From a virus (lineage: Duplodnaviria; Heunggongvirae; Uroviricota; Caudoviricetes): a stretch of DNA of 10,678 bases. Location: the IMG/VR virus record IMGVR_UViG_3300044294_000233; one strand, written 5' to 3'. The position numbers were made by a program, and so were the translations under genes. Shown in pieces: positions 2,241 to 10,201 of this stretch. Position 1 is the first letter of the stretch; each line of letters starts with the position of its first letter. The notes under the pieces were generated by a model. That model saw only the letters and a program-made list of their open reading frames with translations. It had not been told where the DNA came from and did no database searches.

Positions 2241-2678
2241 TCATTTCGACAAATTGCTTTTTACTGCGTCGGCGATTTGAAGGTAAGTTTCAAGCCCGTG
2301 ATTCGAGATGGCAGTGTTTAACGCATAAAGAATGTAGCGGACGTTTTCTCGCAAGTAGCCTTTGCTGTTGTCTATTCTGTCCAGGCTCGCCACGAAGGGT
2401 GCTGCATCGGAAAAAGGAATCTTCGACAAAGCACAGCAATCATTTTGAATCCGAAGTAGGTTCTCCAGAAATTCAATGCTTAAATCGAAATCGAGATGCT
2501 TTTTCTCGGCGCGTTTTTTGGAGTGGACGTAACTGACGTAAGCCCTCTTGCTAGACAGCTTGTTTAGCCAAGCGACATTTTCTAGCCTTCGGCATTTCTT
2601 GCATCGTCTGCCATTGTGTTTCTTCCCGCGATAGAAGTGTTCGTCGCCTTTGTCTTCTTTGCATTTGGTGCAGATCAT
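2241..2678 (-). CDS. HNH (His-Me finger) endonuclease-like protein with N-terminal CxxC...CxxC zinc finger
   Basis: CTKC...CKKC, then CALSKIPF and SLDRIDNSKGYLRENV...N, typical of phage free-standing HNH endonucleases. Visibly lower GC than its neighbours. Confidence 0.8.
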   Translation of the reverse strand: MICTKCKEDKGDEHFYRGKKHNGRRCKKCRRLENVAWLNKLSSKRAYVSYVHSKKRAEKKHLDFDLSIEFLENLLRIQNDCCALSKIPFSDAAPFVASLDRIDNSKGYLRENVRYILYALNTAISNHGLETYLQIADAVKSNLSK

Positions 2679-2916: not shown

Positions 2917-2959
2917 TCATTAAAATGTTACAGCGTCCTGTTCATAGCGTTGTACCTTT

Positions 2960-3008: not shown

Positions 3009-3350
3009 TCATTGCATCAGCAATGCTAACTGGCGCATGTATCGCTCGCTCTGTAGTACGACCTTGAGTGATAGTAGCTGCTGCTTGGTGAGTGGTCGGC
3101 CGCTGTCCTTCTGATCCCTGAGCGAGTGTAGGTAGCGTGTGTCGTGGTCCTCGATGCCGAAAGGACCGGGCAGTTCGGTAGCGAGATCCTCGGCGTTGCT
3201 GTCAGCCAGCACAAGCGTGTCGAACATGCGTTCCACTTCGTCTAGCTGCGAGGCTTTGAGCTTGGGCAGTCGCTGCGCTAGGTCGGCGGTTCGTGCGGCG
3301 AGGTGGGGAAGGTTGGTCTTCCCGTTCGCCTTAGCTTCGTTGATGTCCAT
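3009..3350 (-). CDS. Hypothetical protein (113 aa) starting MDINEAKAN
   Basis: SD AAGGAG and the first nine codons lie inside the 127-bp repeat. The body uses more A/T-ending codons (CTA, TTA, GTA) than neighbouring genes. Confidence 0.75.
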   Translation of the reverse strand: MDINEAKANGKTNLPHLAARTADLAQRLPKLKASQLDEVERMFDTLVLADSNAEDLATELPGPFGIEDHDTRYLHSLRDQKDSGRPLTKQQLLSLKVVLQSERYMRQLALLMQ

Positions 3351-3449
3351 TGCGATCTCCTTGCACAGCCCTAGAAGGGCGTTGAAACGAAAGAAGCCCG
3401 GAAGGGCGATGGGTCGCCGATCCGGGCTTGGAAGCGATCCTATGCGATT
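3323..3449. repeat. 127-bp exact direct repeat, copy 1
   Basis: Identical base for base to 4457-4583 by manual comparison. Confidence 0.95.
3385..3429 (-). terminator. Intrinsic terminator-like hairpin inside repeat copy 1
   Basis: Minus strand: AAGCCCGGA-TC-GGCGA-CCCA-TCGCC-CT-TCCGGGCTT followed by CTTTCGTTT. Confidence 0.65.
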
Positions 3450-3968
3450 TCAGACGGTAGCGGGTTGGAACAGGGCGAGGAAGTTCTGGTAGTCGCCGTT
3501 GTCCGGGTCGGTCAGCTTGGTCGTCATGCGGTCGGTGTCGTTGGTCAGGGCGATGGCGTCTTGCCAGAGGTCGTTGTTGTTCTCGCTGGTCACGGTGGCG
3601 ATGCGGATGTTCTCGCCGTGCTTCGCGAGGCGAACCCGGTACTTGTAGGTGTTCACCCGGCTGATTTCGATCTCCGGGGCGAGCGCCTTCCGAGCGAGTT
3701 CGGCCGTCAGCATCCCGGTGGCGGCGTAGTAGTTGATGTCCGTCTCACGCCACGGTTCGAGTTCGCAGGTATCGACGTTGCGGCCGTGGATCGGGCAGGC
3801 GTCGTTCTGGCCGTTGCACCGATGGTCCGGGCATTCCATCTTGTCGCCCGTCTTCGGGTCGATGTAGTGGAGTTTGGCGAGCTTGCGCCGGCCGTGTTCG
3901 ATGAAGCCGATGACGACCGCGTAGCGGCTGCTGGCCGGGATGCTGACGATGTCGTTGAGGCTGACCAT
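3450..3968 (-). CDS. Hypothetical protein (172 aa) with a possible Zn-binding CPDHRC...CPIH cluster
   Basis: Start reassigned to ATG 3968 (SD AAGGTG; MVSLNDIVSIP). The TGA abuts repeat copy 1 with no gap. Confidence 0.8.
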   Translation of the reverse strand: MVSLNDIVSIPASSRYAVVIGFIEHGRRKLAKLHYIDPKTGDKMECPDHRCNGQNDACPIHGRNVDTCELEPWRETDINYYAATGMLTAELARKALAPEIEISRVNTYKYRVRLAKHGENIRIATVTSENNNDLWQDAIALTNDTDRMTTKLTDPDNGDYQNFLALFQPATV

Positions 3969-3987: not shown

Positions 3988-4055
3988 GTAGAGGCGGGGC
4001 GGCGGGCGTACCTGCCGTTACCCCGACAGACCCTGCTGCCGGACCCCGCCTCTAC
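3988..4055. repeat. 12-bp perfect inverted repeat enclosing a 44-nt GC-rich segment in the leader of the 172-aa gene
   Basis: GTAGAGGCGGGG (3988-3999) and CCCCGCCTCTAC (4044-4055). One arm includes most of the TGTAG box. Confidence 0.8.
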
Positions 4056-4087
4056 ACGTCGTTCGTCTTCTTGTCTCCAAAATTGTG
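4052..4087 (-). promoter_or_regulatory. Recurrent element, non-palindromic-spacer type
   Basis: Minus strand: CACAATTTTGGAGAC-AAGAAGACGAACGACG(16)-TGTAG. Confidence 0.7.
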
Positions 4088-4106
4088 CGGTGAATCCGCC
4101 GCACAA
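4079..4106 (-). terminator. Intrinsic terminator overlapping the upstream box of the element
   Basis: Minus strand: TTGTGCGG-CGGATTCA-CCGCACAA-TTTT. Confidence 0.6.
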
Positions 4107-4172
4107 CGCAAGGTTGGTTCCGTGGTCAGGCACCCCGTTCGGCGTGTCCACGGCTACGCTGAAGCCGCTGCG

Positions 4173-4196
4173 TCATATGAAGCCGGAAGTGTACAT
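4173..4196 (-). CDS. Mini-ORF MYTSGFI (7 aa)
   Basis: ATG TAC ACT TCC GGC TTC ATA TGA, with SD GGAG 6 nt upstream. Confidence 0.35.
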   Translation of the reverse strand: MYTSGFI

Positions 4197-4274
4197 GTTC
4201 TGCTCCGTGCGGGTGGCGAGCCGGTTTAGCGACTGCGGCTCAGGTCGTGCTGGTCACGTCAGCATGGGCCGGGG

Positions 4275-4304
4275 CTATATGAAGCCTGTCGGGTATTCTC
4301 GCAT
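4275..4304 (-). CDS. Mini-ORF MREYPTGFI (9 aa)
   Basis: ATG CGA GAA TAC CCG ACA GGC TTC ATA TAG, with SD GAGGAG 10 nt upstream. Confidence 0.35.
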   Translation of the reverse strand: MREYPTGFI

Positions 4305-4361
4305 CGGGGGCTATCTCCTCGCGCGGAAGTAGCTCGCAGCTACTCCTGCGCGGTTGTTGTT

Positions 4362-4484
4362 TCACTTGCTGTCGGTGACTTCGGCTTTGACCACTTCGAC
4401 TTTCATCACGCCGCTGCCGAGCGTGTCGTTGATCGCCTCATCGACCGCTTCGCCCGCGTTCGCCTTAGCTTCGTTGATGTCCAT
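4362..4484 (-). CDS. Small hypothetical protein (40 aa) starting MDINEAKAN
   Basis: Same SD and first nine codons as 3009-3350, supplied by repeat copy 2, then AGEAVDEAINDTLGSGVMKVEVVKAEVTDSK. Confidence 0.7.
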   Translation of the reverse strand: MDINEAKANAGEAVDEAINDTLGSGVMKVEVVKAEVTDSK

Positions 4485-4583
4485 TGCGATCTCCTTGCAC
4501 AGCCCTAGAAGGGCGTTGAAACGAAAGAAGCCCGGAAGGGCGATGGGTCGCCGATCCGGGCTTGGAAGCGATCCTATGCGATT
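4457..4583. repeat. 127-bp exact direct repeat, copy 2
   Basis: Identical to 3323-3449; offset 1134 bp. Confidence 0.95.
4519..4563 (-). terminator. Intrinsic terminator-like hairpin inside repeat copy 2
   Basis: Same hairpin and U-rich tail as 3385-3429. Confidence 0.65.
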
Positions 4584-4631
4584 GTCGTGATCGGCCACAG
4601 CTTCGTTGCCGGCCTTGACGACCTCGAAGTT

Positions 4632-4814
4632 CTAGATGTTCTCTTCGAGCCACTTGAGGAAGTCCGCGCCGTTGCCCCACTGGGCTTCGATCATCGTGTA
4701 GACACGCACGCCCATGCGGAACGCTCGCGGCGTGTCCAACTCACGCAGCAAGTTCGCCATCAGGCTGTACTCGCCGTCCATCCAAGCCAGCGCGAGCTGT
4801 TCTGCCATCAGCAT
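4632..4814 (-). CDS. Hypothetical protein (60 aa)
   Basis: SD GGAGGT before ATG 4814 (MLMAEQLALAW...WLEENI), ending in TAG. Confidence 0.75.
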   Translation of the reverse strand: MLMAEQLALAWMDGEYSLMANLLRELDTPRAFRMGVRVYTMIEAQWGNGADFLKWLEENI

Positions 4815-4836
4815 GACAACCTCCAATTCGGGTGGG

Positions 4837-4882
4837 GGAGACAACCCTAAACGCTCGGTTTAGGGTTGTCTCCGGTTTTGCG
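4837..4882 (-). promoter_or_regulatory. Recurrent element, hairpin type, 16-bp perfect stem
   Basis: Plus strand: GGAGACAACCCTAAAC-GCTCG-GTTTAGGGTTGTCTCC-GGTTTTGCG. Starts 0 nt after the TGA of 4883-5362. Confidence 0.85.
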
Positions 4883-5362
4883 TCAGTTTTTGTTGAGGTC
4901 AAAGTTCCGTTCGATGGTGTAGCGGTCGTGACCGAACGGCTCGAACGCGGCCTTCAGGCGAGCTTCGGCAGCCTTGAACCCTTCGATGGCAGCCGCGAGT
5001 TCGTCAATGGAGGCTTGGTTGCTGAGGACGGCGGCGCGGGCGATGTTCCGCTTGACGGCCGCGTCGAGGTGAGCCGGGTTGTACTCCTCGAAGAACTTCG
5101 CGTCAACGACGATGTTCTTGAGGGCGTAGGCGATGATCATGTCCGTTTTCTGGTCGCCGTTCTGGAAGCTGACGTAGGTCATGCTGGCGCGGGCGTGCGT
5201 CGTGACCTCGAAGCCGAGCGTTTCCGACATCTTCTTGAGGTAGGGCGCGGTCAGCCGCTTGCCGTCGTTGGCCTTGAAGTAGTCGAGAACGGCCTGCGGG
5301 CGTTCGGTGTGTTCGGTCGCGTAGAACACCGTGTTGAAGATCGTTTCGGAGGTCGTCGGCAT
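4883..5362 (-). CDS. Hypothetical protein (159 aa)
   Basis: SD GGAG and strong codon bias. Bounded by an element on each side. Confidence 0.85.
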   Translation of the reverse strand: MPTTSETIFNTVFYATEHTERPQAVLDYFKANDGKRLTAPYLKKMSETLGFEVTTHARASMTYVSFQNGDQKTDMIIAYALKNIVVDAKFFEEYNPAHLDAAVKRNIARAAVLSNQASIDELAAAIEGFKAAEARLKAAFEPFGHDRYTIERNFDLNKN

Positions 5363-5386
5363 CGCAAGCTCCAGTTCGGGATGGGC

Positions 5387-5431
5387 GAGACAACCCTACA
5401 CACTCGGCGTAGGGTTGTCTCCGGTTTTGCG
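5387..5431 (-). promoter_or_regulatory. Recurrent element, hairpin type, 13-bp stem
   Basis: GAGACAACCCTAC-ACACTCGGC-GTAGGGTTGTCTC-CGGTTTTGCG. Starts 1 nt after the upstream TGA. Confidence 0.85.
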
Positions 5432-5432
5432 T

Positions 5433-5660
5433 TCAGGAAATTGCGGGTTCGGGTGCGGCAACGGGCGAGGGCGCGGTGACCGAGTCGTACAGGTGCCGCA
5501 GGGCGATGCGGAGAACCTGACTGGCGTTCTTCTCGCCGTAGTGTTGTTTCATGTCCGCGAGCATCGCCTGCTCGTCGGTGGTGAGCCGCAGCCCGCGAGC
5601 TTGCCCATAGATGCCGTCGCCGGGCGTTGCGGCGGGACCGGAGGTGATGACGTTTTCCAT
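5433..5660 (-). CDS. Ribbon-helix-helix (CopG/Arc/MetJ-like) DNA-binding protein (75 aa)
   Basis: GLRLTTDEQAMLADMKQHYGEKNASQVLRIALRHLY fits the strand-helix-turn-SxxxRxAL pattern. SD AGGA. Confidence 0.65.
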   Translation of the reverse strand: MENVITSGPAATPGDGIYGQARGLRLTTDEQAMLADMKQHYGEKNASQVLRIALRHLYDSVTAPSPVAAPEPAIS

Positions 5661-5685
5661 AGTCCTGTGGGTTCGAGGTGGGGGT

Positions 5686-5862
5686 TCAGTAACCGAGGCA
5701 CGCGAGCATCGTGTCTTCGTCGTTCAGCGCGGCGTCGAGGTCGGCCGGGTTGCACTTCAGGATGTGGCACATTTCCAGTCGAACGGCCGGGCCGAGGTTG
5801 CCGAAGAGTTGCAGGTTCGCCATCGCGTTCGCGGCGGCGTTAACGATGTCCGTCGTGGTCAT
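5686..5862 (-). CDS. Hypothetical protein (58 aa), not in the ORF track
   Basis: MTTTDIVNAAANAMANLQLFGNLGPAVRLEMCHILKCNPADLDAALNDEDTMLACLGY; SD GAGGTG. Confidence 0.8.
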   Translation of the reverse strand: MTTTDIVNAAANAMANLQLFGNLGPAVRLEMCHILKCNPADLDAALNDEDTMLACLGY

Positions 5863-5883
5863 TCTGCACCTCGAATGGTTGGG

Positions 5884-5929
5884 GGAGACAACCCTACAAG
5901 GGCGGTGTAGGGTTGTCTCCGGTTTTGCG
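5884..5929 (-). promoter_or_regulatory. Recurrent element, hairpin type, 15-bp perfect stem
   Basis: GGAGACAACCCTACA-AGGGCGG-TGTAGGGTTGTCTCC-GGTTTTGCG. Starts 2 nt after the upstream TGA. Confidence 0.85.
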
Positions 5930-5931
5930 CA

Positions 5932-6042
5932 TCACCAACCGCGTTGTTTGCGGAGTTCGTCCGCTTCGGCCTTCCGCCGCTTCAGGTCGGTGACTTGCCG
6001 TGTGAGTACGAGTACGGTAATGCCGATGTTGCACTTGGTCAC
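5932..6042 (-). CDS. Small hypothetical protein (36 aa)
   Basis: GTG start overlaps the upstream stop (GTGA); SD AAGGA. MTKCNIGITVLVLTRQVTDLKRRKAEADELRKQRGW. Confidence 0.55.
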   Translation of the reverse strand: MTKCNIGITVLVLTRQVTDLKRRKAEADELRKQRGW

Positions 6043-6245
6043 GATTGTTCCTTGTTGAAGGGTTTGCCTTTGATCTTGGTCACGTTGTCGTCGGTGGCGA
6101 GGCCGGGCGTGCCGTGAGCGCCACCCATGTTCAGCACCCACCCACCTTCGCCGCTCGGCATCACGGCCTTGCCCGTCTTCTCTTGGCCGAAGCGGTTCTT
6201 GATGGTGACGCGGTCGCCGGCCTTGATGAGCGTGCGAATCTTCAT
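6039..6245 (-). CDS. Hypothetical phage protein (68 aa, IKAGDRVTI...GWVLNMGGAHGTP)
   Basis: SD GGAG before ATG 6245. The pattern suggests a small beta-rich fold (inference). Confidence 0.85.
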   Translation of the reverse strand: MKIRTLIKAGDRVTIKNRFGQEKTGKAVMPSGEGGWVLNMGGAHGTPGLATDDNVTKIKGKPFNKEQS

Positions 6246-6273
6246 CGCGTTCTCCAGTAGCGGGTGATGGGCT

Positions 6274-6316
6274 GACAACCCTACAAGGGCGGTGTAGAGT
6301 TGTCTCCGGTTTTGCG
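6274..6316 (-). promoter_or_regulatory. Recurrent element, hairpin type, 12-bp stem with one mismatch
   Basis: GACAACCCTACA-AGGGCGG-TGTAGAGTTGTC-TCCGGTTTTGCG. Loop identical to the 5884 copy; starts 2 nt after the upstream TGA. Confidence 0.85.
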
Positions 6317-6318
6317 CC

Positions 6319-6561
6319 TCAGTTCCCGACCCAAGTTCCGGGTTCCTTCATCGCCCGTTGCAGCATCGCCCACTCTTGCGGCATCAGGTCGGCCGCGAGA
6401 TCCAACACCGCGCCGAGGGTGAGCGGGCGGTGAAACACCTTGCCGTCCTTGTCCTCGAACGCCCAGTACCAGAGTCGGCCGCTGCCGCCCGGCTCACACA
6501 CGTCTTGCAGGTTGACCAAGCACTTCGTGAACATCGTGGCACCTTGAGGTTGTTGCGTCAC
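6319..6561 (-). CDS. Hypothetical protein (80 aa, or 71 aa from the internal ATG of MFTKC)
   Basis: GTGA overlap with the upstream stop. The alternative ATG has SD AAGGTG. Confidence 0.75.
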   Translation of the reverse strand: MTQQPQGATMFTKCLVNLQDVCEPGGSGRLWYWAFEDKDGKVFHRPLTLGAVLDLAADLMPQEWAMLQRAMKEPGTWVGN

Positions 6562-6764
6562 ACTTCCACGTCATCGAAGCTCAACACCGCCTCGAACCCA
6601 TCGGGGAGCGAAACCGTGACCTCGCGTTCCGCTTGGTTGACCGACAGCACTTGTAGCCGGTGCCACCGGGGGAACTGCGTTTCGATCTCCGCGCCCGTGT
6701 CGGGGTTGGTCGCCTCAACGAAGAACATGATGTTCTTCGTGCGGACAGAGTCGCCGGCCTTCAT
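6558..6764 (-). CDS. Hypothetical protein (68 aa)
   Basis: SD GAGGA; MKAGDSVRTK...VLSFDDVEV. Confidence 0.8.
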   Translation of the reverse strand: MKAGDSVRTKNIMFFVEATNPDTGAEIETQFPRWHRLQVLSVNQAEREVTVSLPDGFEAVLSFDDVEV

Positions 6765-6771
6765 GTCGTCC

Positions 6772-7056
6772 TCACTTCTGGATGTAGTAGGTGGGGTAAT
6801 AGCCGCACTCGTAGCTCGCGTTGTAGTGCTTCCAGTTGTTGAACATCAAGTCCCACGCGGTCGCCTCGATGCTCCCCTTCCAGAGCGTTTCGTGCGTGCG
6901 GTACATCTCGGCCTTCTCCAAGTATTCCTTGCCGTAGACGAGGGCCGCGCTGCTGAAGGGGCCGTCCGGGGCGAGCTTGCAGGGGCAGAGGAAGATGGCT
7001 TCGTTCTTGGCGAACCGCTTCTTGGCCTCGGCCTTGCTGATCTTGACGAACGGCAT
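6772..7056 (-). CDS. Hypothetical phage protein (94 aa, CPCKL...FNNWKHYNASYECGYYPTYY)
   Basis: Start reassigned to ATG 7056 (SD GGAG), because the longer ORF-track start runs through the element. Confidence 0.8.
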   Translation of the reverse strand: MPFVKISKAEAKKRFAKNEAIFLCPCKLAPDGPFSSAALVYGKEYLEKAEMYRTHETLWKGSIEATAWDLMFNNWKHYNASYECGYYPTYYIQK

Positions 7057-7082
7057 CGCGTTGCTCCGAGTGCGAAATGGGC

Positions 7083-7127
7083 GAGACAACCCTACACGCA
7101 CGGCATAGGGTTGTCTTCGGTTTTGCG
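7083..7127 (-). promoter_or_regulatory. Recurrent element, hairpin type, 11-bp stem plus G-T
   Basis: GAGACAACCCTA-CACGCACGGCA-TAGGGTTGTCTT-CGGTTTTGCG. Starts 0 nt after the upstream TGA. Confidence 0.85.
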
Positions 7128-7370
7128 TCAGTCTTTCTTTTGGCAACTGGCGACGGTCGCCAAGCCGCGCCGCTCTGCGATGTACTTTGCCGTTTCGCCG
7201 TGGCCCGCGAACTCAAAATGCACGTCTTCGTTGACCACAGACGCCACAACCAAATCGTAACCGCGAGAGGTGAAGAACATCACGATGGCGTCTAGGCTGT
7301 CGTATACGCCGTGAATGACCGTCGATTCGATCTTGTTTTTGTTCCACAACTTGAGAATCCAGACGTACAT
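7128..7370 (-). CDS. Hypothetical protein (80 aa)
   Basis: ATG 3 nt after the upstream stop; the TGA abuts the element. Confidence 0.7.
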   Translation of the reverse strand: MYVWILKLWNKNKIESTVIHGVYDSLDAIVMFFTSRGYDLVVASVVNEDVHFEFAGHGETAKYIAERRGLATVASCQKKD

Positions 7371-7373
7371 GGG

Positions 7374-7661
7374 TCACATGCTTTCGGTAATGGGTTGCTC
7401 TTTGCCGTCCTTCATCTTCTTGTAGAGGATGATGGGGTTCGCGGTGCCTTCCTTCCAGATGATGCGGCCGAGGCCGTCAACGCCGGTGTCCGGGGGAACG
7501 AGGTACACGCTGTAGTTCCCGAACTTCTCGCTGCTCGGCGCGTTCTTCTTGGCGTTGGCGATGGCTTGCTTCTCGGTGTCGGCCTTGCCGAAGCAGAACG
7601 GCCCGATCACCAAGAACTTGTAGTCCACGTTCGCACGCTTTACCATCTTCTTCGCGGGCAT
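7374..7661 (-). CDS. Hypothetical protein (95 aa)
   Basis: SD GGAG and typical codon bias. Confidence 0.8.
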   Translation of the reverse strand: MPAKKMVKRANVDYKFLVIGPFCFGKADTEKQAIANAKKNAPSSEKFGNYSVYLVPPDTGVDGLGRIIWKEGTANPIILYKKMKDGKEQPITESM

Positions 7662-7679
7662 GTCGCTCTCCGGTTGGGG

Positions 7680-7705
7680 GACAACCCGGCGCGAACCGGG
7701 TTGTC
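7680..7705. promoter_or_regulatory. Hairpin-only variant of the element (10-bp perfect stem, boxes absent)
   Basis: GACAACCCGG-CGCGAA-CCGGGTTGTC. Keeps the GACAACCC/GGGTTGTC arms, lacks CGCAAAACCGGA and TGTAG. Confidence 0.7.
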
Positions 7706-7715
7706 GGGGTTGGGG

Positions 7716-7883
7716 TCAAGCTTTCGCGGCGTCGATTCGCTTCGTTACCCGGCTCACTTCGGCGGTCGCGTGCCGAATCTCGTTTTCGAGGTTCAGCTTC
7801 ATCCGCTTCTCCAACTCCTCGAAGCTCGGCACGGTGTAGCCGGTCAGTTCGTAGTTGTGGCGGTAGTTGTCGCCCCGGTTCAC
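7716..7883 (-). CDS. Hypothetical protein (55 aa from GTG 7883; possibly longer from ATG 7906 with a frameshift)
   Basis: (HYEVK)VNRGDNYRHNYELTGYTVPSFEELEKRMKLNLENEIRHATAEVSRVTKRIDAAKA with strong codon bias. The SD-preceded ATG 7906 is out of frame (MDPITKSR*). Confidence 0.65.
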   Translation of the reverse strand: MNRGDNYRHNYELTGYTVPSFEELEKRMKLNLENEIRHATAEVSRVTKRIDAAKA

Positions 7884-7907
7884 CTTGACTTCGTAATGGG
7901 GTCCATG

Positions 7908-8081
7908 TTACTCCTTCGTGGCCGCGTTGAACCGCGCGGCCCGCGTGTTGAGGCGTTTGGTGCGGCGGTCGCCGTGTTTGCCGCCGCCGCTGCGGTGCTG
8001 CGTGTGGCCGGTCGGCACGTTCTTGGGGGTGGAAACCGTGAACTTGATTTCTTTGCTCTTGGGGGCGTGAACGACGTGCAT
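7908..8081 (-). CDS. Small basic hypothetical protein (57 aa), not in the ORF track
   Basis: MHVVHAPKSKEIKFTVSTPKNVPTGHTQHRSGGGKHGDRRTKRLNTRAARFNAATKE; SD GGAG. Confidence 0.8.
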   Translation of the reverse strand: MHVVHAPKSKEIKFTVSTPKNVPTGHTQHRSGGGKHGDRRTKRLNTRAARFNAATKE

Positions 8082-8105
8082 GTTAAGCTCCAGTGGGTTA
8101 CAAGC

Positions 8106-8141
8106 CTACACGCACGTCGTTCGCGAGTCTCCGAAATTGCG
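8106..8141 (-). promoter_or_regulatory. Recurrent element, non-palindromic-spacer type
   Basis: Minus strand: CGCAATTTCGGAGAC-TCGCGAACGACGTGCG(16)-TGTAG. Starts 1 nt after a TGA at 8143-8145. Confidence 0.8.
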
Positions 8142-8142
8142 C

Positions 8143-8320
8143 TCATTTCAGCGGGGCTTCCACGATGGTCAGAACGTGGTCCGCGCCGTCGTTGCACTCC
8201 GAGACGAACAGGTTCCTGATCCGCCTTGTTGCGGTGACGGTCGGCCACCGCGATCAGGAGCTTCCCGTAATCGCCTTCTGCGGTCAGCCGGCCGCAGACG
8301 CTGCAACACGCCGCCTTCAT
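8143..8320 (-). pseudogene. Small CxxC protein with an apparent +1 frameshift (about 58 aa if corrected)
   Basis: Begins MKAACCSVCGRLTAEGDYGKLLIAV (ATGA overlap, SD). Codon bias moves to the +1 frame (RIRNLFVSECNDGADHVLTIVEAPLK*), whose stop abuts the element. Confidence 0.6.
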
Positions 8321-8511
8321 CGCCTTCTCCCCGAACGTTGGCCAATCGGCCTGTCGGCGTGGTCGTACCAGCGCCAACAGAACTCGATCTCTTCTTGCTT
8401 GGTCCTCGGAAACCAGTCCCCGCGACTGGCCTCCAACCGCATTTCCCAGTCCTCACGAGCGTCTCGCCGCTCGCCTTCGTCCCAGTCGCGTTTGATCTCT
8501 TCCCACGTCAT
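8317..8511 (-). CDS. Hypothetical Trp/Arg/Glu-rich protein (64 aa)
   Basis: SD GAGGA; its stop overlaps the next ATG. Confidence 0.75.
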   Translation of the reverse strand: MTWEEIKRDWDEGERRDAREDWEMRLEASRGDWFPRTKQEEIEFCWRWYDHADRPIGQRSGRRR

Positions 8512-8520
8512 TCGAGATCC

Positions 8521-8910
8521 TCACAGTGCTGCGAAGAGTTGTGGAACCCGCTTGCCATCGATCTCCTTCGTACCCATGATCAGCAGCCGGCACTGGTGAA
8601 CCGCTTCGCCTTCGTGACCCTCGTCTTTGCGGACGAAGTGTCCCGCCTTGTACGGGTTGTAGGTCACCGGGGTGACTGCGTCGAGGAACTCCAGACTCGG
8701 CTCGAAGCCGGCGATCTCGCCGCATGCGAAAGCGTGAACGTTCTTCCGCTTCTCGGCAATCACCCGCTGCCGCGCCCGCTCGTTGACCTTGAACGTTACA
8801 CCCTTGAGGAGAACGAAGGTCTTGAGATCCTGCTTGTTCTCCACAAGCCCCGTCTGGGGGTTCTTGATGGACCAGCCGCGTTTGTGCAGGTTGAAGTAGA
8901 TCAGTTTCAT
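8521..8910 (-). CDS. Hypothetical phage protein (129 aa, YFNLHK...RQRVIAEKRKNVHAF...YNPYK)
   Basis: Start reassigned to ATG 8910 (ATGA overlap with the 8907 stop). The motif set resembles a stand-alone phage family recalled from memory. Confidence 0.8.
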   Translation of the reverse strand: MKLIYFNLHKRGWSIKNPQTGLVENKQDLKTFVLLKGVTFKVNERARQRVIAEKRKNVHAFACGEIAGFEPSLEFLDAVTPVTYNPYKAGHFVRKDEGHEGEAVHQCRLLIMGTKEIDGKRVPQLFAAL

Positions 8911-9144
8911 TTTCGCTTCGCCTTCCTTCTCATGTTGACGCAGGTCGGGCAACGCACCTTGTTTGTGACCAGCGAGGAAGCTCCAGCCGGCTTCCTCGAA
9001 GTGGGCTTGAGCTTCCGGGCCGAACATGCCCGGCTCTCGCGTGTCCTCGCGGTTGTAGTCGGCACACTCTGTACAGTGGCCGCAGACGACGTGCGCCCGC
9101 AGGGTGATTCTGATGCCGCCGTTTTCGAGCAGTTCGGGTGACAT
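8907..9144 (-). pseudogene. Zn-ribbon-like protein (CGHC...GW...CPTC) with an apparent +1 frameshift (about 78 aa if corrected)
   Basis: Frame 0 gives MSPELL...CGHCTEC...EEAGWSF. The +1 frame gives VTNKVRCPTCVNMRRKAKRK* and ends in an ATGA overlap with the next gene. Confidence 0.65.
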
Positions 9145-9159
9145 AGGTAGCTCCTAGTG

Positions 9160-9201
9160 CCACAAGACGCAATCTCGGTTGTCTCCGAGATTGCGTCTTG
9201 T
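9160..9201 (-). promoter_or_regulatory. Recurrent element variant inside a different 17-bp perfect hairpin
   Basis: Minus strand: CGCAATCTCGGAGAC-N16-TGTGG. Plus strand: ACAAGACGCAATCTCGG (9162-9178), loop TTGTCT, CCGAGATTGCGTCTTGT (9185-9201). Confidence 0.75.
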
Positions 9202-9207
9202 TTTCGA

Positions 9208-9933
9208 TCAGAAGGGGATGGCCGGGTCGAGGGGAATCCGCTTGCCGGCCGGGATGATACCCTTCGGGGCGGCTTCGACAACCGGCGCGTCTTCCGGTTC
9301 GCCCATCCAGCAGAGCAGCATGGCCCCGTTCATCGTCCGCTTCTTGCCCCAGTAGCAGAAGCACCCGCACGCCTGCGTGATGAACGAGCCGTCCGGCTTG
9401 ACCGCGCCCTTGAGGTTCGCGGTGAGGGCGTCGGCCTGAGCCTTGCTCAACCACGTCATCGCGAACTCGTCGTCGTGCTTCTCGAACTGGACGCGGTTCT
9501 GTTCCATCGCCCGGCGGATGAGCGAGGCGGCGAAATCGTCGGCCTTCTGTTGGGCCGTCTCCGCGTCGGCGTGCATGTCCGCGACTTCGTCCCGCGTCAT
9601 CGGGGCGGCTTCTTCGGGTTGCGGGACGAAGCCGCAGAAGGTGAGCAGGTAGTAGGTGCGGCCTTTCGACTCGCTGTAGATGTCCTTGACGAACGCGCCG
9701 AACTTCTGGTCGCCGGTGCCGTGGGTGATGACGCCCGCGTCACCGATCAGGTTGCCGAGGAACTCGGCCTGCTTCTCGGAGATGAAGATTTCGGCGGTGA
9801 CGGCGCGGCCCATGAACCGGCGAACCGCTTCGGCCTTGTCGCCGCGCGGGGCGTACTTCACGCCCTGAATCTTGTCCTTGTTGCGGCCGATGATGTCGAA
9901 GGCCAGCGAAGCGGCGGTGTGTTGGGTGGCCAT
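9208..9933 (-). CDS. Hypothetical protein (241 aa) with a possible internal duplication
   Basis: Start reassigned to ATG 9933 (SD GGAG). FISEKQAEFL and WLSKAQADAL look like two copies of one motif. Confidence 0.85.
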   Translation of the reverse strand: MATQHTAASLAFDIIGRNKDKIQGVKYAPRGDKAEAVRRFMGRAVTAEIFISEKQAEFLGNLIGDAGVITHGTGDQKFGAFVKDIYSESKGRTYYLLTFCGFVPQPEEAAPMTRDEVADMHADAETAQQKADDFAASLIRRAMEQNRVQFEKHDDEFAMTWLSKAQADALTANLKGAVKPDGSFITQACGCFCYWGKKRTMNGAMLLCWMGEPEDAPVVEAAPKGIIPAGKRIPLDPAIPF

Positions 9934-9967
9934 CGTCGTGTCTCCGAAGGGTGATGGGTTGACACCA

Positions 9968-10003
9968 CTACACACCGCCGCGTTCGCAGTCTCCGAAATT
10001 GCG
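9968..10003 (-). promoter_or_regulatory. Recurrent element, non-palindromic-spacer type
   Basis: Minus strand: CGCAATTTCGGAGAC-TGCGAACGCGGCGGTG(16)-TGTAG. Starts 0 nt after the TAG at 10004-10006. Confidence 0.8.
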
Positions 10004-10201
10004 CTAACTTTTCTGGAGCGTGGCAATCCACTGCTCCAGAGCCTTCTTCCCGCTCGTCGCCCGGATGGAGTGGGCTTCGGTCGGGTCGCTCGACTTCGTG
10101 CCTCTGACGACGTACCAGAGGCGATTAAAGCTGTTCTCGAACGCCTTGTAAAGAACACCGTCAATCGTGACGGTGCCTTTGCTGATCTTGCCGATTGTCA
10201 C
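10004..10201 (-). CDS. Hypothetical protein (65 aa)
   Basis: GTGA overlap with the upstream stop, SD GGAG, TAG stop abutting the element. Confidence 0.75.
   Translation of the reverse strand: MTIGKISKGTVTIDGVLYKAFENSFNRLWYVVRGTKSSDPTEAHSIRATSGKKALEQWIATLQKS

Follow-up and report, generated by a model that had tools for sequence, protein, structure and literature searches.

The window analysed here, a stretch of 10,678 nt at the end of a 126-kb fragment from an uncultured phage of roughly 500 kb, raises the question of what is signalled by two short boxes that recur in front of one group of small genes after another. Huge phages carry hundreds of small genes without known function, and how these are transcribed and exchanged is, to our knowledge, almost wholly unknown.

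A pattern search with CGCAAWWYCGGAGAC-N16-TGTAG returned exactly nine matches in the window, all on the minus strand: 4052-4088, 4847-4883, 5396-5432, 5894-5930, 6281-6317, 7092-7128, 8106-8142, 9160-9196 and 9968-10004. The number expected by chance is 0, and 200 dinucleotide shuffles of the window gave no match. Minus is the gene strand, as indicated by matches of 8521-9144 to PF25735 and of 2241-2678 to phage endonuclease families. The original prediction had described nine copies in one orientation, an exact 16-nt spacer, and seven copies starting 0-2 nt past the upstream stop codon; the pattern search and a check of positions uphold each point, with a 16-nt spacer in 9/9 window copies and a stop-abutting start in 7/9. 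The two exceptions are the copies at 9196, set 12 nt from the stop, and at 4088, preceded by 275 nt of non-coding sequence. Among the predicted start positions, 4052, 8106, 9160 and 9968 stand, and those at 4837, 5387, 5884, 6274 and 7083 take in the right arm of a hairpin. A Shine-Dalgarno (SD) sequence does follow each element, and the modules hold one to four small genes rather than the one to three first proposed.

A motif scan beyond the window extended the array. It runs past the window end and continues for 15 kb on other contigs of the same phage. A 27.9-kb reconstruction from these contigs contains 22 copies, all on the gene strand, and two further copies lie upstream of it, giving at least 24 in total. 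The spacer is exactly 16 nt in 23 of 24 copies. The motif is absent from the rest of the 126-kb fragment, and two diverged relatives retain the element. Within the array region, genes inside one module overlap or almost touch, and the elements are the main intergenic spaces, making up about half of the intergenic DNA. This is a hyperplastic ORFan region, in which 17 of the 20 ORFs searched against PHROG have no PHROG or Pfam family. One protein encoded within the array has an L5 gp82-like domain, and an endonuclease VII/HNH-like gene lies 1.4 kb past the last element.

Each element has the same order: an A-rich stretch covering the final codons and the stop of the gene upstream, box 1 (CGCAA-WWY-CGGAGAC), the 16-nt spacer, and box 2 (TGTAG, usually continued as GGTTGTC), followed by about 30-40 nt with the SD and start codon. 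The start lies 15-83 nt after TGTAG, typically 31-42 nt. Information content is highest in the boxes, the spacer sequences vary, and the wording GCAAAACCGGAGAC...TGTAG is consistent across the copies of this phage. The second, -10-like box is rich in G, an unusual composition for a region that has to melt.

The nine window elements, all on the minus strand, head distinct modules. E9 (9968-10004) has two boxes without a hairpin (z +0.3) and heads gene C (9208-9933). E8 (9160-9201), with the box 2 variant TGTGG, carries a different, 17-bp hairpin built on box 1 (inverted repeat I15, z -8.7) and precedes genes D (8521-9144), E (8317-8511) and the frameshifted F (about 8143-8320). E7 (8106-8142) has no hairpin of its own, and its spacer pairs with sequence around the start codon of G (inverted repeat I19); its module comprises G (7908-8081), the remnant H (7716-7907), I (7374-7661) and J (7128-7370). 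Between H and I, a hairpin-only intergenic element without boxes (7676-7712) is retained in the relative L075. E6 (7083-7128), with a 14-bp hairpin, heads K (6772-7056), L (6558-6764) and M (6319-6534). E5 (6274-6317), also with a hairpin, heads N (6039-6245) and O (5932-6042), and gene M lies within a split box 1 just upstream. Hairpins are likewise present in E4 (5884-5930), heading P (5686-5862) and Q (5433-5660), in E3 (5387-5432), heading R (4883-5362), and in E2 (4837-4883), which has the box 2 variant TTTAG and heads S (4632-4814) and the chimeric T' (4362-4484). E1 (4052-4088), with the box 1 variant CACAA and no hairpin, lies 83 nt upstream of gene U (3450-3968). The non-coding stretch between T' and E1 (4089-4364) is conserved and is a candidate structured RNA: its proposed structure has 69 pairs, 10 of them compensatory, across 3 lineages, and it matches no Rfam family.

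The hairpin varies between copies. It is present in 17/22 copies, 15 of these 17 having z <= -2, and absent from 5/22, in which boxes and spacing are nevertheless intact. The five window copies from 4847 to 7092 form perfect 14-bp hairpins with both boxes inside the arms; the 9160 copy forms a different one, and those at 4052, 8106 and 9968 form none. Arms lying over both boxes are the commonest arrangement, with variants on box 1 (E8), around box 2 (EXT 5312, L062 3522) and upstream of box 1 (L075, after the AAA gene). Base pairing has been maintained through sequence change: 15 cells have changed on both sides, where shuffles gave 6.3 +/- 2.0 (0 of 500), and the paired share of cells is 74%, falling to 37-52% when the partners are slid.

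One role for such a hairpin would be intrinsic (rho-independent) termination, for which a G+C-rich hairpin with a U-tract behind it on the transcribed strand is the hallmark. The 3' side of the hairpin on the gene strand has no U-tract and is C-rich instead; a hairpin followed by GGTTTTGCG reads on the antisense strand only. As canonical terminators are used nearby in the same region (the D3 repeat, I12), the element is not merely a terminator.

A broader possibility is that the element acts in RNA only, marking points on a single long early transcript where the RNA is processed, stabilised or terminated and where an RNase or RNA-binding protein cuts or binds, with no promoter involved. RNase III sites between T7 early genes and ribozyme sites between phage genes are comparable cases. 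The location directly after stop codons and the strong covarying hairpins in 17/22 copies would agree with this reading, as would the boxless hairpin variant at 7676-7712, which is also intergenic. Set against it are the five hairpin-less copies, which keep both boxes at exact spacing; the boxes are paired in hairpin copies and single-stranded in the others, which is hard to square with one RNA-level reader. Against the covariance models of Rfam 15, all known self-cleaving ribozymes included, no family matched the element at E <= 1, and only two chance-level matches (E 0.12 and 0.53) were seen, far under the gathering scores. Together with the missing U-tract on the gene strand, this makes an RNA-only element quite unlikely. 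Burial of both boxes in the stem argues against recognition as single-stranded RNA, and retention of boxes and spacing with or without the hairpin argues for recognition on double-stranded DNA. The evidence thus favours a promoter with an added stem-loop, recognised as duplex DNA.

If the element is a promoter, it does not resemble the standard type. At the elements, a consensus scan (TTGACA-N17-TATAAT) of the gene strand gave nothing of the sigma-70 type. Forced to fit, the best reading is GAGACA-N17-TAGGGT, with matches at 4/6 and 3/6 positions against an E. coli-type consensus, from which that of the host may differ. This forced reading is close to the TTGACN / TAGNNT of high-G+C bacteria, and the elements could be ordinary early promoters for the primary sigma of the host, with a non-E. 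coli consensus and no phage factor. With a 17-nt spacer, the hairpin copies match the -35 in GACA and the -10 in T, A and T; the would-be A-11 is invariant in 28 copies from two lineages and is kept in the TA(T/C)AG box of L075; A/T stretches lie where UP-element subsites would be; and small ORFans in arrays are as a rule early genes transcribed by the host polymerase. The would-be T-7, however, is not conserved and covaries with its hairpin partner, the conserved CGCAA and the G before GAGAC are left unexplained, and the boxes change in all copies at once between close lineages. On these grounds the host primary sigma is an unlikely reader.

The box and spacer geometry, GAGAC/TGTAG around a rigid 16-nt spacer, resembles ECF-type promoters. 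The B. subtilis SigW promoter, TGAAAC-N16-CGTA, is an example. The type has AAC in its -35 and CGT in its -10 box. The likeness lies in a short -35 ending in AC, a rigid spacer of 16-17 nt and a short -10 containing G and T (GAGAC-N16-TGTA here). The conserved upstream CGCAA, in contrast, is not an ECF feature, and searches of the 126-kb fragment, of its extension and of G001, the nearest complete relative (IMGVR_UViG_3300049215_000771), turned up no gene for an ECF sigma. A promoter for a non-sigma-70 factor that also marks a cassette boundary, as originally predicted, fits the invariant spacing with or without the hairpin, the site between stop and SD, the single orientation, the confinement to a block of small ORFans, and the gene junctions described below. 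The phage sigma factor or RNA polymerase sought along with it was not found: no sigma, activator or RNA polymerase gene was recognised in the known 140 kb of this phage (genome ~25% known).

Oriented sites at gene ends could also block or modulate transcription by binding a phage DNA-binding regulator, again without any promoter. Stoperators, the model for such an arrangement, are single 13-bp sites. The oriented examples in mycobacteriophage L5 are reportedly those of Brown et al. in 1997. With its boxes separated by 16 nt and at a roughly constant distance from SD and start, the present element has the geometry of a promoter rather than of such single sites, and no repressor-like gene was recognised in the known sequence. 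A regulator-binding site is therefore very unlikely, even with many copies facing one direction over or abutting stop codons and with the L5 gp82-like protein encoded among them.

The huge phage G001, which encodes two sigma-like genes, offers a comparison. It has about 20 copies of a two-box-plus-hairpin element in one 15-kb array of small genes. They follow stop codons immediately, on the gene strand; their boxes are TTTCCGAACC and GGTCTTCC, the hairpin between the boxes covaries, and the start lies about 45 nt downstream. Copies without the hairpin keep the boxes and their 15-nt spacing. The two phages thus share the post-stop site, the strand, two boxes at fixed spacing, the covarying hairpin and hairpin-less copies, and differ in wording and spacer (TTTCCGAACC/GGTCTTCC and 15 nt in G001; GGAGAC/TGTAG and 16 nt here). 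G001 contains no homologues of the window genes. Ordinary sigma-70-type promoters in G001 form a class apart from its stop-abutting two-box elements, a further point against reading by the host primary sigma.

The element also bears on gene gain and loss. The two diverged relatives, L062 (79-93% nucleotide identity) and L075 (68% amino acid identity in the R protein), have GAGAC-N16-T..AG at the same positions, and within each the box changes are common to all copies: GCACTTCGAGAGAC...TGTAG throughout L062 and ...TA(T/C)AG in L075. Both differ from this phage in gene content, and several of the junctions, but not all, lie in or at elements. Six differences from L062 were resolved to the base. 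For J, for M and for the E4-P-Q unit, which L062 lacks, one or more of the junctions fall in or at an element: gene J ends at E6, and gene M sits inside split box 1. The S/T' insertion has its left junction at an element, and two of the six differences have no element junction. The insertion of S falls just behind E2; together with its SD (4632-4830), S duplicates, at 99.5% identity, a gene some 21 kb upstream, the identity beginning between box 2 and the SD and stopping at the stop codon. Nearby, 4457-4583 is a perfect 127-bp direct repeat (D3) of 3323-3449, which holds a canonical terminator, an SD and the first 9 codons of gene V. In L075, a 1.7-kb block of three modules flanked by elements is missing. 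Three rearrangements are unrelated to elements: O was fused through ACTC microhomology within genes, L062 carries a 94-aa gene, and H is truncated. The predicted role as a recombination boundary is compatible with several gains and losses, seen against two relatives and in one internal duplicate, and does not account for rearrangements inside genes. Some junctions at elements are expected without any special role, since viable gain or loss of whole modules needs intergenic sites and elements are about half of the intergenic DNA.

Integrons are one precedent for such arrays. They consist of promoterless cassettes behind a single Pc promoter, with attC sites that are imperfect, bulged palindromes at the cassette 3' end. 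The original prediction likened the array to an integron, and the hairpins could be attC-like folded sites of a recombinase-driven gene-capture system: hairpin-forming repeats lie between small unrelated genes, gene content at the repeats differs between relatives, and S was copied as a bare ORF. Other observations do not support the comparison. No IntI-type tyrosine recombinase (PF00589) was found in the 126-kb fragment or among the gene calls of the upstream 14.5 kb (genome ~25% known). Junctions vary in position, some being in box 1, others elsewhere within the element or in the gap from box 2 to the SD; certain rearrangements are internal to genes, away from any element; and the repeat is 5' of the genes it heads, with a promoter-like signal on every module. 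Identification as attC cassettes was rejected, the palindromes being perfect 14-mers without the bulged attC design and absent from five of 22 copies. Integron-like capture is accordingly highly improbable. With no integrase found and with variable junction positions, gene shuffling here looks like homologous exchange of the PeSL type.

PeSLs (promoter-early stem-loops) are known from the T4-type phages RB49/phi1, T4/PST and KVP40/nt-1 (Arbiol et al. 2010, PMC2839356; Comeau et al. 2014, PMC4122927). They comprise a stop codon, an AT-rich stretch, -35 and -10 boxes, a stem-loop in variable positions, an SD, ORFans and indel end points (PMC2839356). The likeness noted in the original prediction is nearly point for point, and the motif is better described as a variant of this known kind than as an undescribed system. 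Both are repeated intergenic cassettes (60-90 nt in PeSLs) running from an upstream stop through an A/T-rich stretch and two boxes to SD and start, with a stem-loop that lies over the boxes or between them, and in some copies at another place. Both are concentrated among small ORFans. PeSLs lie at end points of insertion, deletion and replacement between relatives, as do several of the elements here. The sigma-70-like promoter part is not found here: PeSLs have the sigma-70 consensus or close to it, whereas this element has GGAGAC and TGTAG around a rigid 16-nt spacer, and its hairpin is a long perfect palindrome without a U-tract. Its carrier is an unrelated, roughly 500-kb uncultured phage. 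Measured promoter and terminator activity and excised mini-circles are further features of PeSLs.

Taken together, these comparisons suggest that the element is probably a compact PeSL-type transcription cassette, a putative promoter read by a non-standard factor. The two boxes would be its -35-like and -10-like parts, read on duplex DNA by host RNA polymerase with a specificity factor of non-standard type; a sigma or activator encoded by the phage is the likeliest candidate, an alternative sigma of the host a less likely one. Every such promoter would govern one module, with one to four small accessory genes. In most copies a 14-bp palindrome appears to have formed from the spacer and its flanks, with the boxes in its arms. 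Transcripts begun at the element would lack the left arm. RNA reading through from the module upstream would form the complete hairpin immediately behind the stop codon, and this could lead to attenuation, stabilisation or processing of the read-through RNA. As ~24 similar cassettes of 60-80 nt in one orientation within about 22 kb, the elements may also serve as homology for recombination and gene conversion, leading to gain, loss and duplication of whole modules and to concerted change of the boxes.

A bolder version, possible but on balance doubtful, is that the boxes are read by a sigma or activator of the huge-phage lineage itself, co-evolving with them. In that case the cassette would work as a portable expression plug, private to the lineage, that turns on any ORF captured, and the palindrome, possibly as a cruciform, would be a preferred exchange point, the whole forming a dedicated system by which huge phages capture and express accessory genes.

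For annotation, the element marks true gene starts and reveals the remnants H, F and T'. One class of at least 24 near-identical signals divides a 22-kb accessory region into modules of one to four genes, and a related phage has its own, differently worded version beside ordinary sigma-70-type promoters. Should the reader of the boxes be a factor encoded by the phage, the boxes would offer a handle for the temporal classing of genes in uncultured huge phages and for finding the factor itself. The elements also indicate that the PeSL way of shuffling accessory genes is not limited to T4-like phages.

The degenerate two-box pattern returns exactly nine minus-strand matches, at 4052, 4837, 5387, 5884, 6274, 7083, 8106, 9160 and 9968 (elements E1 to E9, respectively), and none in 200 shuffles. 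The spacer is exactly 16 nt in all nine window copies and seven of these begin 0-2 nt past a stop codon, in agreement with the original prediction. The array is truncated by the contig end, and the same proteins are present on other contigs. Two JGI contigs that match the window perfectly over its full length lengthen the array by 14.5 kb; the resulting 27.9-kb reconstruction (EXT) contains 22 element copies, each of them on the gene strand, and another short contig contributes two more. Across these 24 copies the spacer is 16 nt in 23 and 15 nt in one. The consensus is an A-rich stretch followed by gCGCAA-aac-CGGAGAC, 16 nt, and TGTAG-gG.TGTc, with the highest information content in the two boxes. 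After each element, an SD and ATG pair follows on the minus strand; the distance from TGTAG to the next start is 15-83 nt (mostly 31-42 nt), and genes within one module overlap or almost touch.

The phage is present in JGI samples 3300045004, 3300045005, 3300045010 and 3300045015 and in runs SRR35359074, SRR35364242 and SRR35386001. Several short-read contigs (L065, L067 and L069) terminate, at EXT 12226 and 19867, inside element copies that have 35 identical bases in common (EXT 12181 and E3). Such endings result from assembly across the repeat and also show the likeness of distant copies. One Logan contig carries a 67-bp difference, which is located within a gene.

The window corresponds to bases 45-10722, reverse strand, of a 125,807-bp IMG/VR virus record with a CheckV completeness of 25%. 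The structural genes of this 126-kb fragment are collinear with those of a complete 532,729-bp record, G001, at 40-85% protein identity; by this sequence comparison we identify the fragment as a piece of a very large phage. Between 1287 and 10678, every real gene is on the minus strand. A scan of the whole fragment located the motif in the array copies and nowhere else in the 126-kb fragment, the rest of which contains no other high-copy motif. An exact-pattern scan of IMG/VR found no further record, and the same scan of metagenome contigs found three single, unrelated-looking hits, each without a second copy and treated here as chance. A related-locus search for relatives of a 241-aa array protein returned none; the motif is absent from loci retrieved via the neighbouring ADP-ribosylglycohydrolase gene, and G001 contains neither the motif nor homologues of the window's genes.

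Two diverged relatives do carry the element: L062, with 79-93% DNA identity to the window's phage, and L075, in which the protein of gene R (4883-5362) is 68% identical. Both retain it at the same positions. Within each lineage, box changes are common to all copies, such that box 1 reads GCACTTCGAGAGAC in L062 and box 2 reads TA(T/C)AG in L075. Such concerted change implies that the copies often convert one another or that they have evolved together with their reader.

Many copies are also palindromic. The five window copies E2-E6 form perfect 14-bp hairpins, with a left arm that begins with the GAGAC of box 1 and a right arm that begins with the TGTAG of box 2. E8 has a different hairpin built on box 1, and E9, E7 and E1 have none. 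In the reconstruction, a hairpin is present in 17 of the 22 copies (z <= -2 in 15). When covariation was tested in 28 copies from two lineages, 15 cells had changed on both sides versus 6.3 +/- 2.0 in shuffles (0 of 500), and pairing was 74% versus 37-52% with the partners slid. The hairpin covariation in these copies is real. In L075 even box 2 takes part, its third position (T or C) varying in step with the partner base. C-rich sequence, and no U-tract, comes after the hairpin, and canonical terminators are used elsewhere in the region. At E7 (8066-8125), the start-codon region of gene G is complementary to the spacer and box 2 (18 nt, 89%). The start of G could therefore be masked in read-through RNA but not in RNA begun at E7, an arrangement that resembles that of T4 lysozyme. 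An endonuclease VII/HNH-like gene (145 aa; 2241-2678, minus strand) matches phage endonuclease families (PHROG E 1e-23) and has no hit in Pfam; it is located 1.4 kb past the last element and adjoins this array of cruciform-capable palindromes.

The likeness to the promoter-early stem-loops (PeSLs) of T4-type phages is borne out structurally. PeSLs begin at a stop codon and continue with an AT-rich stretch, -35/-10 boxes, a stem-loop that lies over the boxes, between them or at another site, and an SD before the start; they occur upstream of ORFans in hyperplastic regions and also at indel end points (PMC2839356; PMC4122927). The element agrees with this description in every structural respect, including a hairpin position that differs between copies, except that it lacks the sigma-70 consensus that defines PeSLs and belongs to a different phage family. 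The element is accordingly filed here as one that would work like a PeSL and is not a member in the strict sense.

The proposal that breakpoints fall at the element holds for several junctions. The E4-P-Q unit (P, 5686-5862; Q, 5433-5660) is missing from L062, where a single element combines the upstream flank of E4 with the downstream flank of E3 and retains a relic of the AAAACCGG form beside its own box 1. A split box 1 encloses gene M (6319-6534), which has CGCAA on either side; E6 is the exact end point of gene J, absent from L062; and the insertion of S and T' is immediately behind the E2 boxes. Gene S (60 aa; window 4632-4830) is duplicated about 21 kb upstream (L078 58-253) at 99.5% identity, with one mismatch in about 200 nt. 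This identity starts between box 2 and the SD and stops at the stop codon, and the two copies stand behind elements of different subtypes. Where this phage has three modules, running from E6 to Q, L075 has a single element, and the contents of the slot behind R are different in each of the three lineages.

Other changes fall away from elements and speak against a special role. O (36 aa; 5932-6042) is an in-frame fusion of two L062 genes through a 1.35-kb deletion at ACTC microhomology, and an inserted 94-aa gene in L062 has no element with it. H (7716-7907) is a C-terminal remnant of a 192-aa L075 protein. A direct repeat (3323-3449 and 4457-4583), perfect over 127 bp, is not an element; it carries the opening nine codons of gene V together with an SD and a canonical terminator, and the second copy, which L062 lacks, gives rise to a chimeric 40-aa ORF (4362-4484). 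Two more genes, like H and O, are decayed or remodelled: F (8143-8320) requires a frameshift, and D (8521-9144, minus strand; PF25735 match, E 2e-24) joins in frame a 78-aa N-terminal extension and an L5 gp82-like domain, which L075 has on its own. Only junctions between genes leave these intact, and roughly half of the DNA between genes is element sequence, so the enrichment of elements at junctions is suggestive and unproven. Integron-like capture fared less well: junction positions vary within the element, and the search for a recombinase found no integrase in the 126-kb fragment. This combination points to exchange at the elements that would be homologous or microhomology-driven, as in PeSLs, rather than site-specific.

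Several further features were observed along the region. A non-coding stretch of roughly 275 nt (4089-4364, minus strand), upstream of E1 and gene U (3450-3968), is kept in three lineages (L062 3574-3862; L075 11196-11500). Its predicted fold has 69 pairs, 10 with compensatory changes, and matches no Rfam family; as the L062 counterpart lies directly behind an element, the stretch could be a structured RNA that is transcribed, or else a long leader. Scans for Rfam families and tRNAs proved negative. L (6558-6764) and N (6039-6245) are small paralogues with a common KAGDxVxxKN start. Upstream of the array, L078 250-480 contains a terminator and then three tandem repeats of a roughly 95-100-nt unit. 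The 18-mer GTTCATAGCGTTGTACCT from this unit recurs inverted at window 2941-2958 (plus strand), where it adjoins a 15-bp hairpin at 2960-2995.

The boxes and their exact spacing are kept in base-paired and unpaired copies alike. Recognition on duplex DNA would be unaffected by the difference in pairing, whereas recognition as single-stranded RNA could not accommodate it. Two short boxes, a rigid 16-nt gap, a single orientation, a position about 35 nt ahead of an SD and start, and A/T stretches located where UP subsites would be most likely represent promoter geometry. The wording is, as predicted, not sigma-70-like. A forced sigma-70 reading, GAGACA-N17-TAGGGT, matches only 4/6 and 3/6, and its would-be T-7 tracks the hairpin partner rather than being fixed. 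On inspection, sigma-32 (CCCCAT) and sigma-54 readings were ruled out by spacing, as was a small-ORF reading of box 1, in which GGAG has no start codon. The GAGAC-N16-TGTA form resembles that of ECF-type promoters.

As for the anticipated phage factor, the known 140 kb contains no sigma factor, polymerase or recognisable regulator; searches of the 126-kb fragment for sigma regions 2 and 4 returned only HTH hits in a LAGLIDADG endonuclease. G001 encodes a 322-aa RpoD/RpoS-like sigma factor, whose gene follows a near-consensus sigma-70 promoter (TTGAGT-N17-TATAAT), and a 179-aa protein limited to sigma region 2. Its weak candidates yielded no ECF sigma, and no multisubunit RNA polymerase was detected by a search that is blind to divergent two-barrel polymerases.

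G001 has 17 canonical sigma-70-type promoters (CTTTACAACC ... TAnnAT) and a separate class of about 20 elements directly after stop codons, TTTCCGAACC-N15-GGTCTTCC, the two classes lying at about 62-158 kb, 389-475 kb and 215-230 kb (L027-L053). The stop-abutting elements have a covarying hairpin between the boxes, and hairpin-less copies retain boxes and spacing; motifs of the G001 type are absent from the window's phage. Together, these signals show that host-type promoters are joined, in this phage group, by a second promoter-like class whose wording is specific to the lineage. Given this second class, the commonness of the sigma family on contigs of huge-phage size and the sigma-70 homologues encoded by huge phages (PMC7162821), the favoured reading is that the element is a promoter that would be read with a phage-supplied factor.
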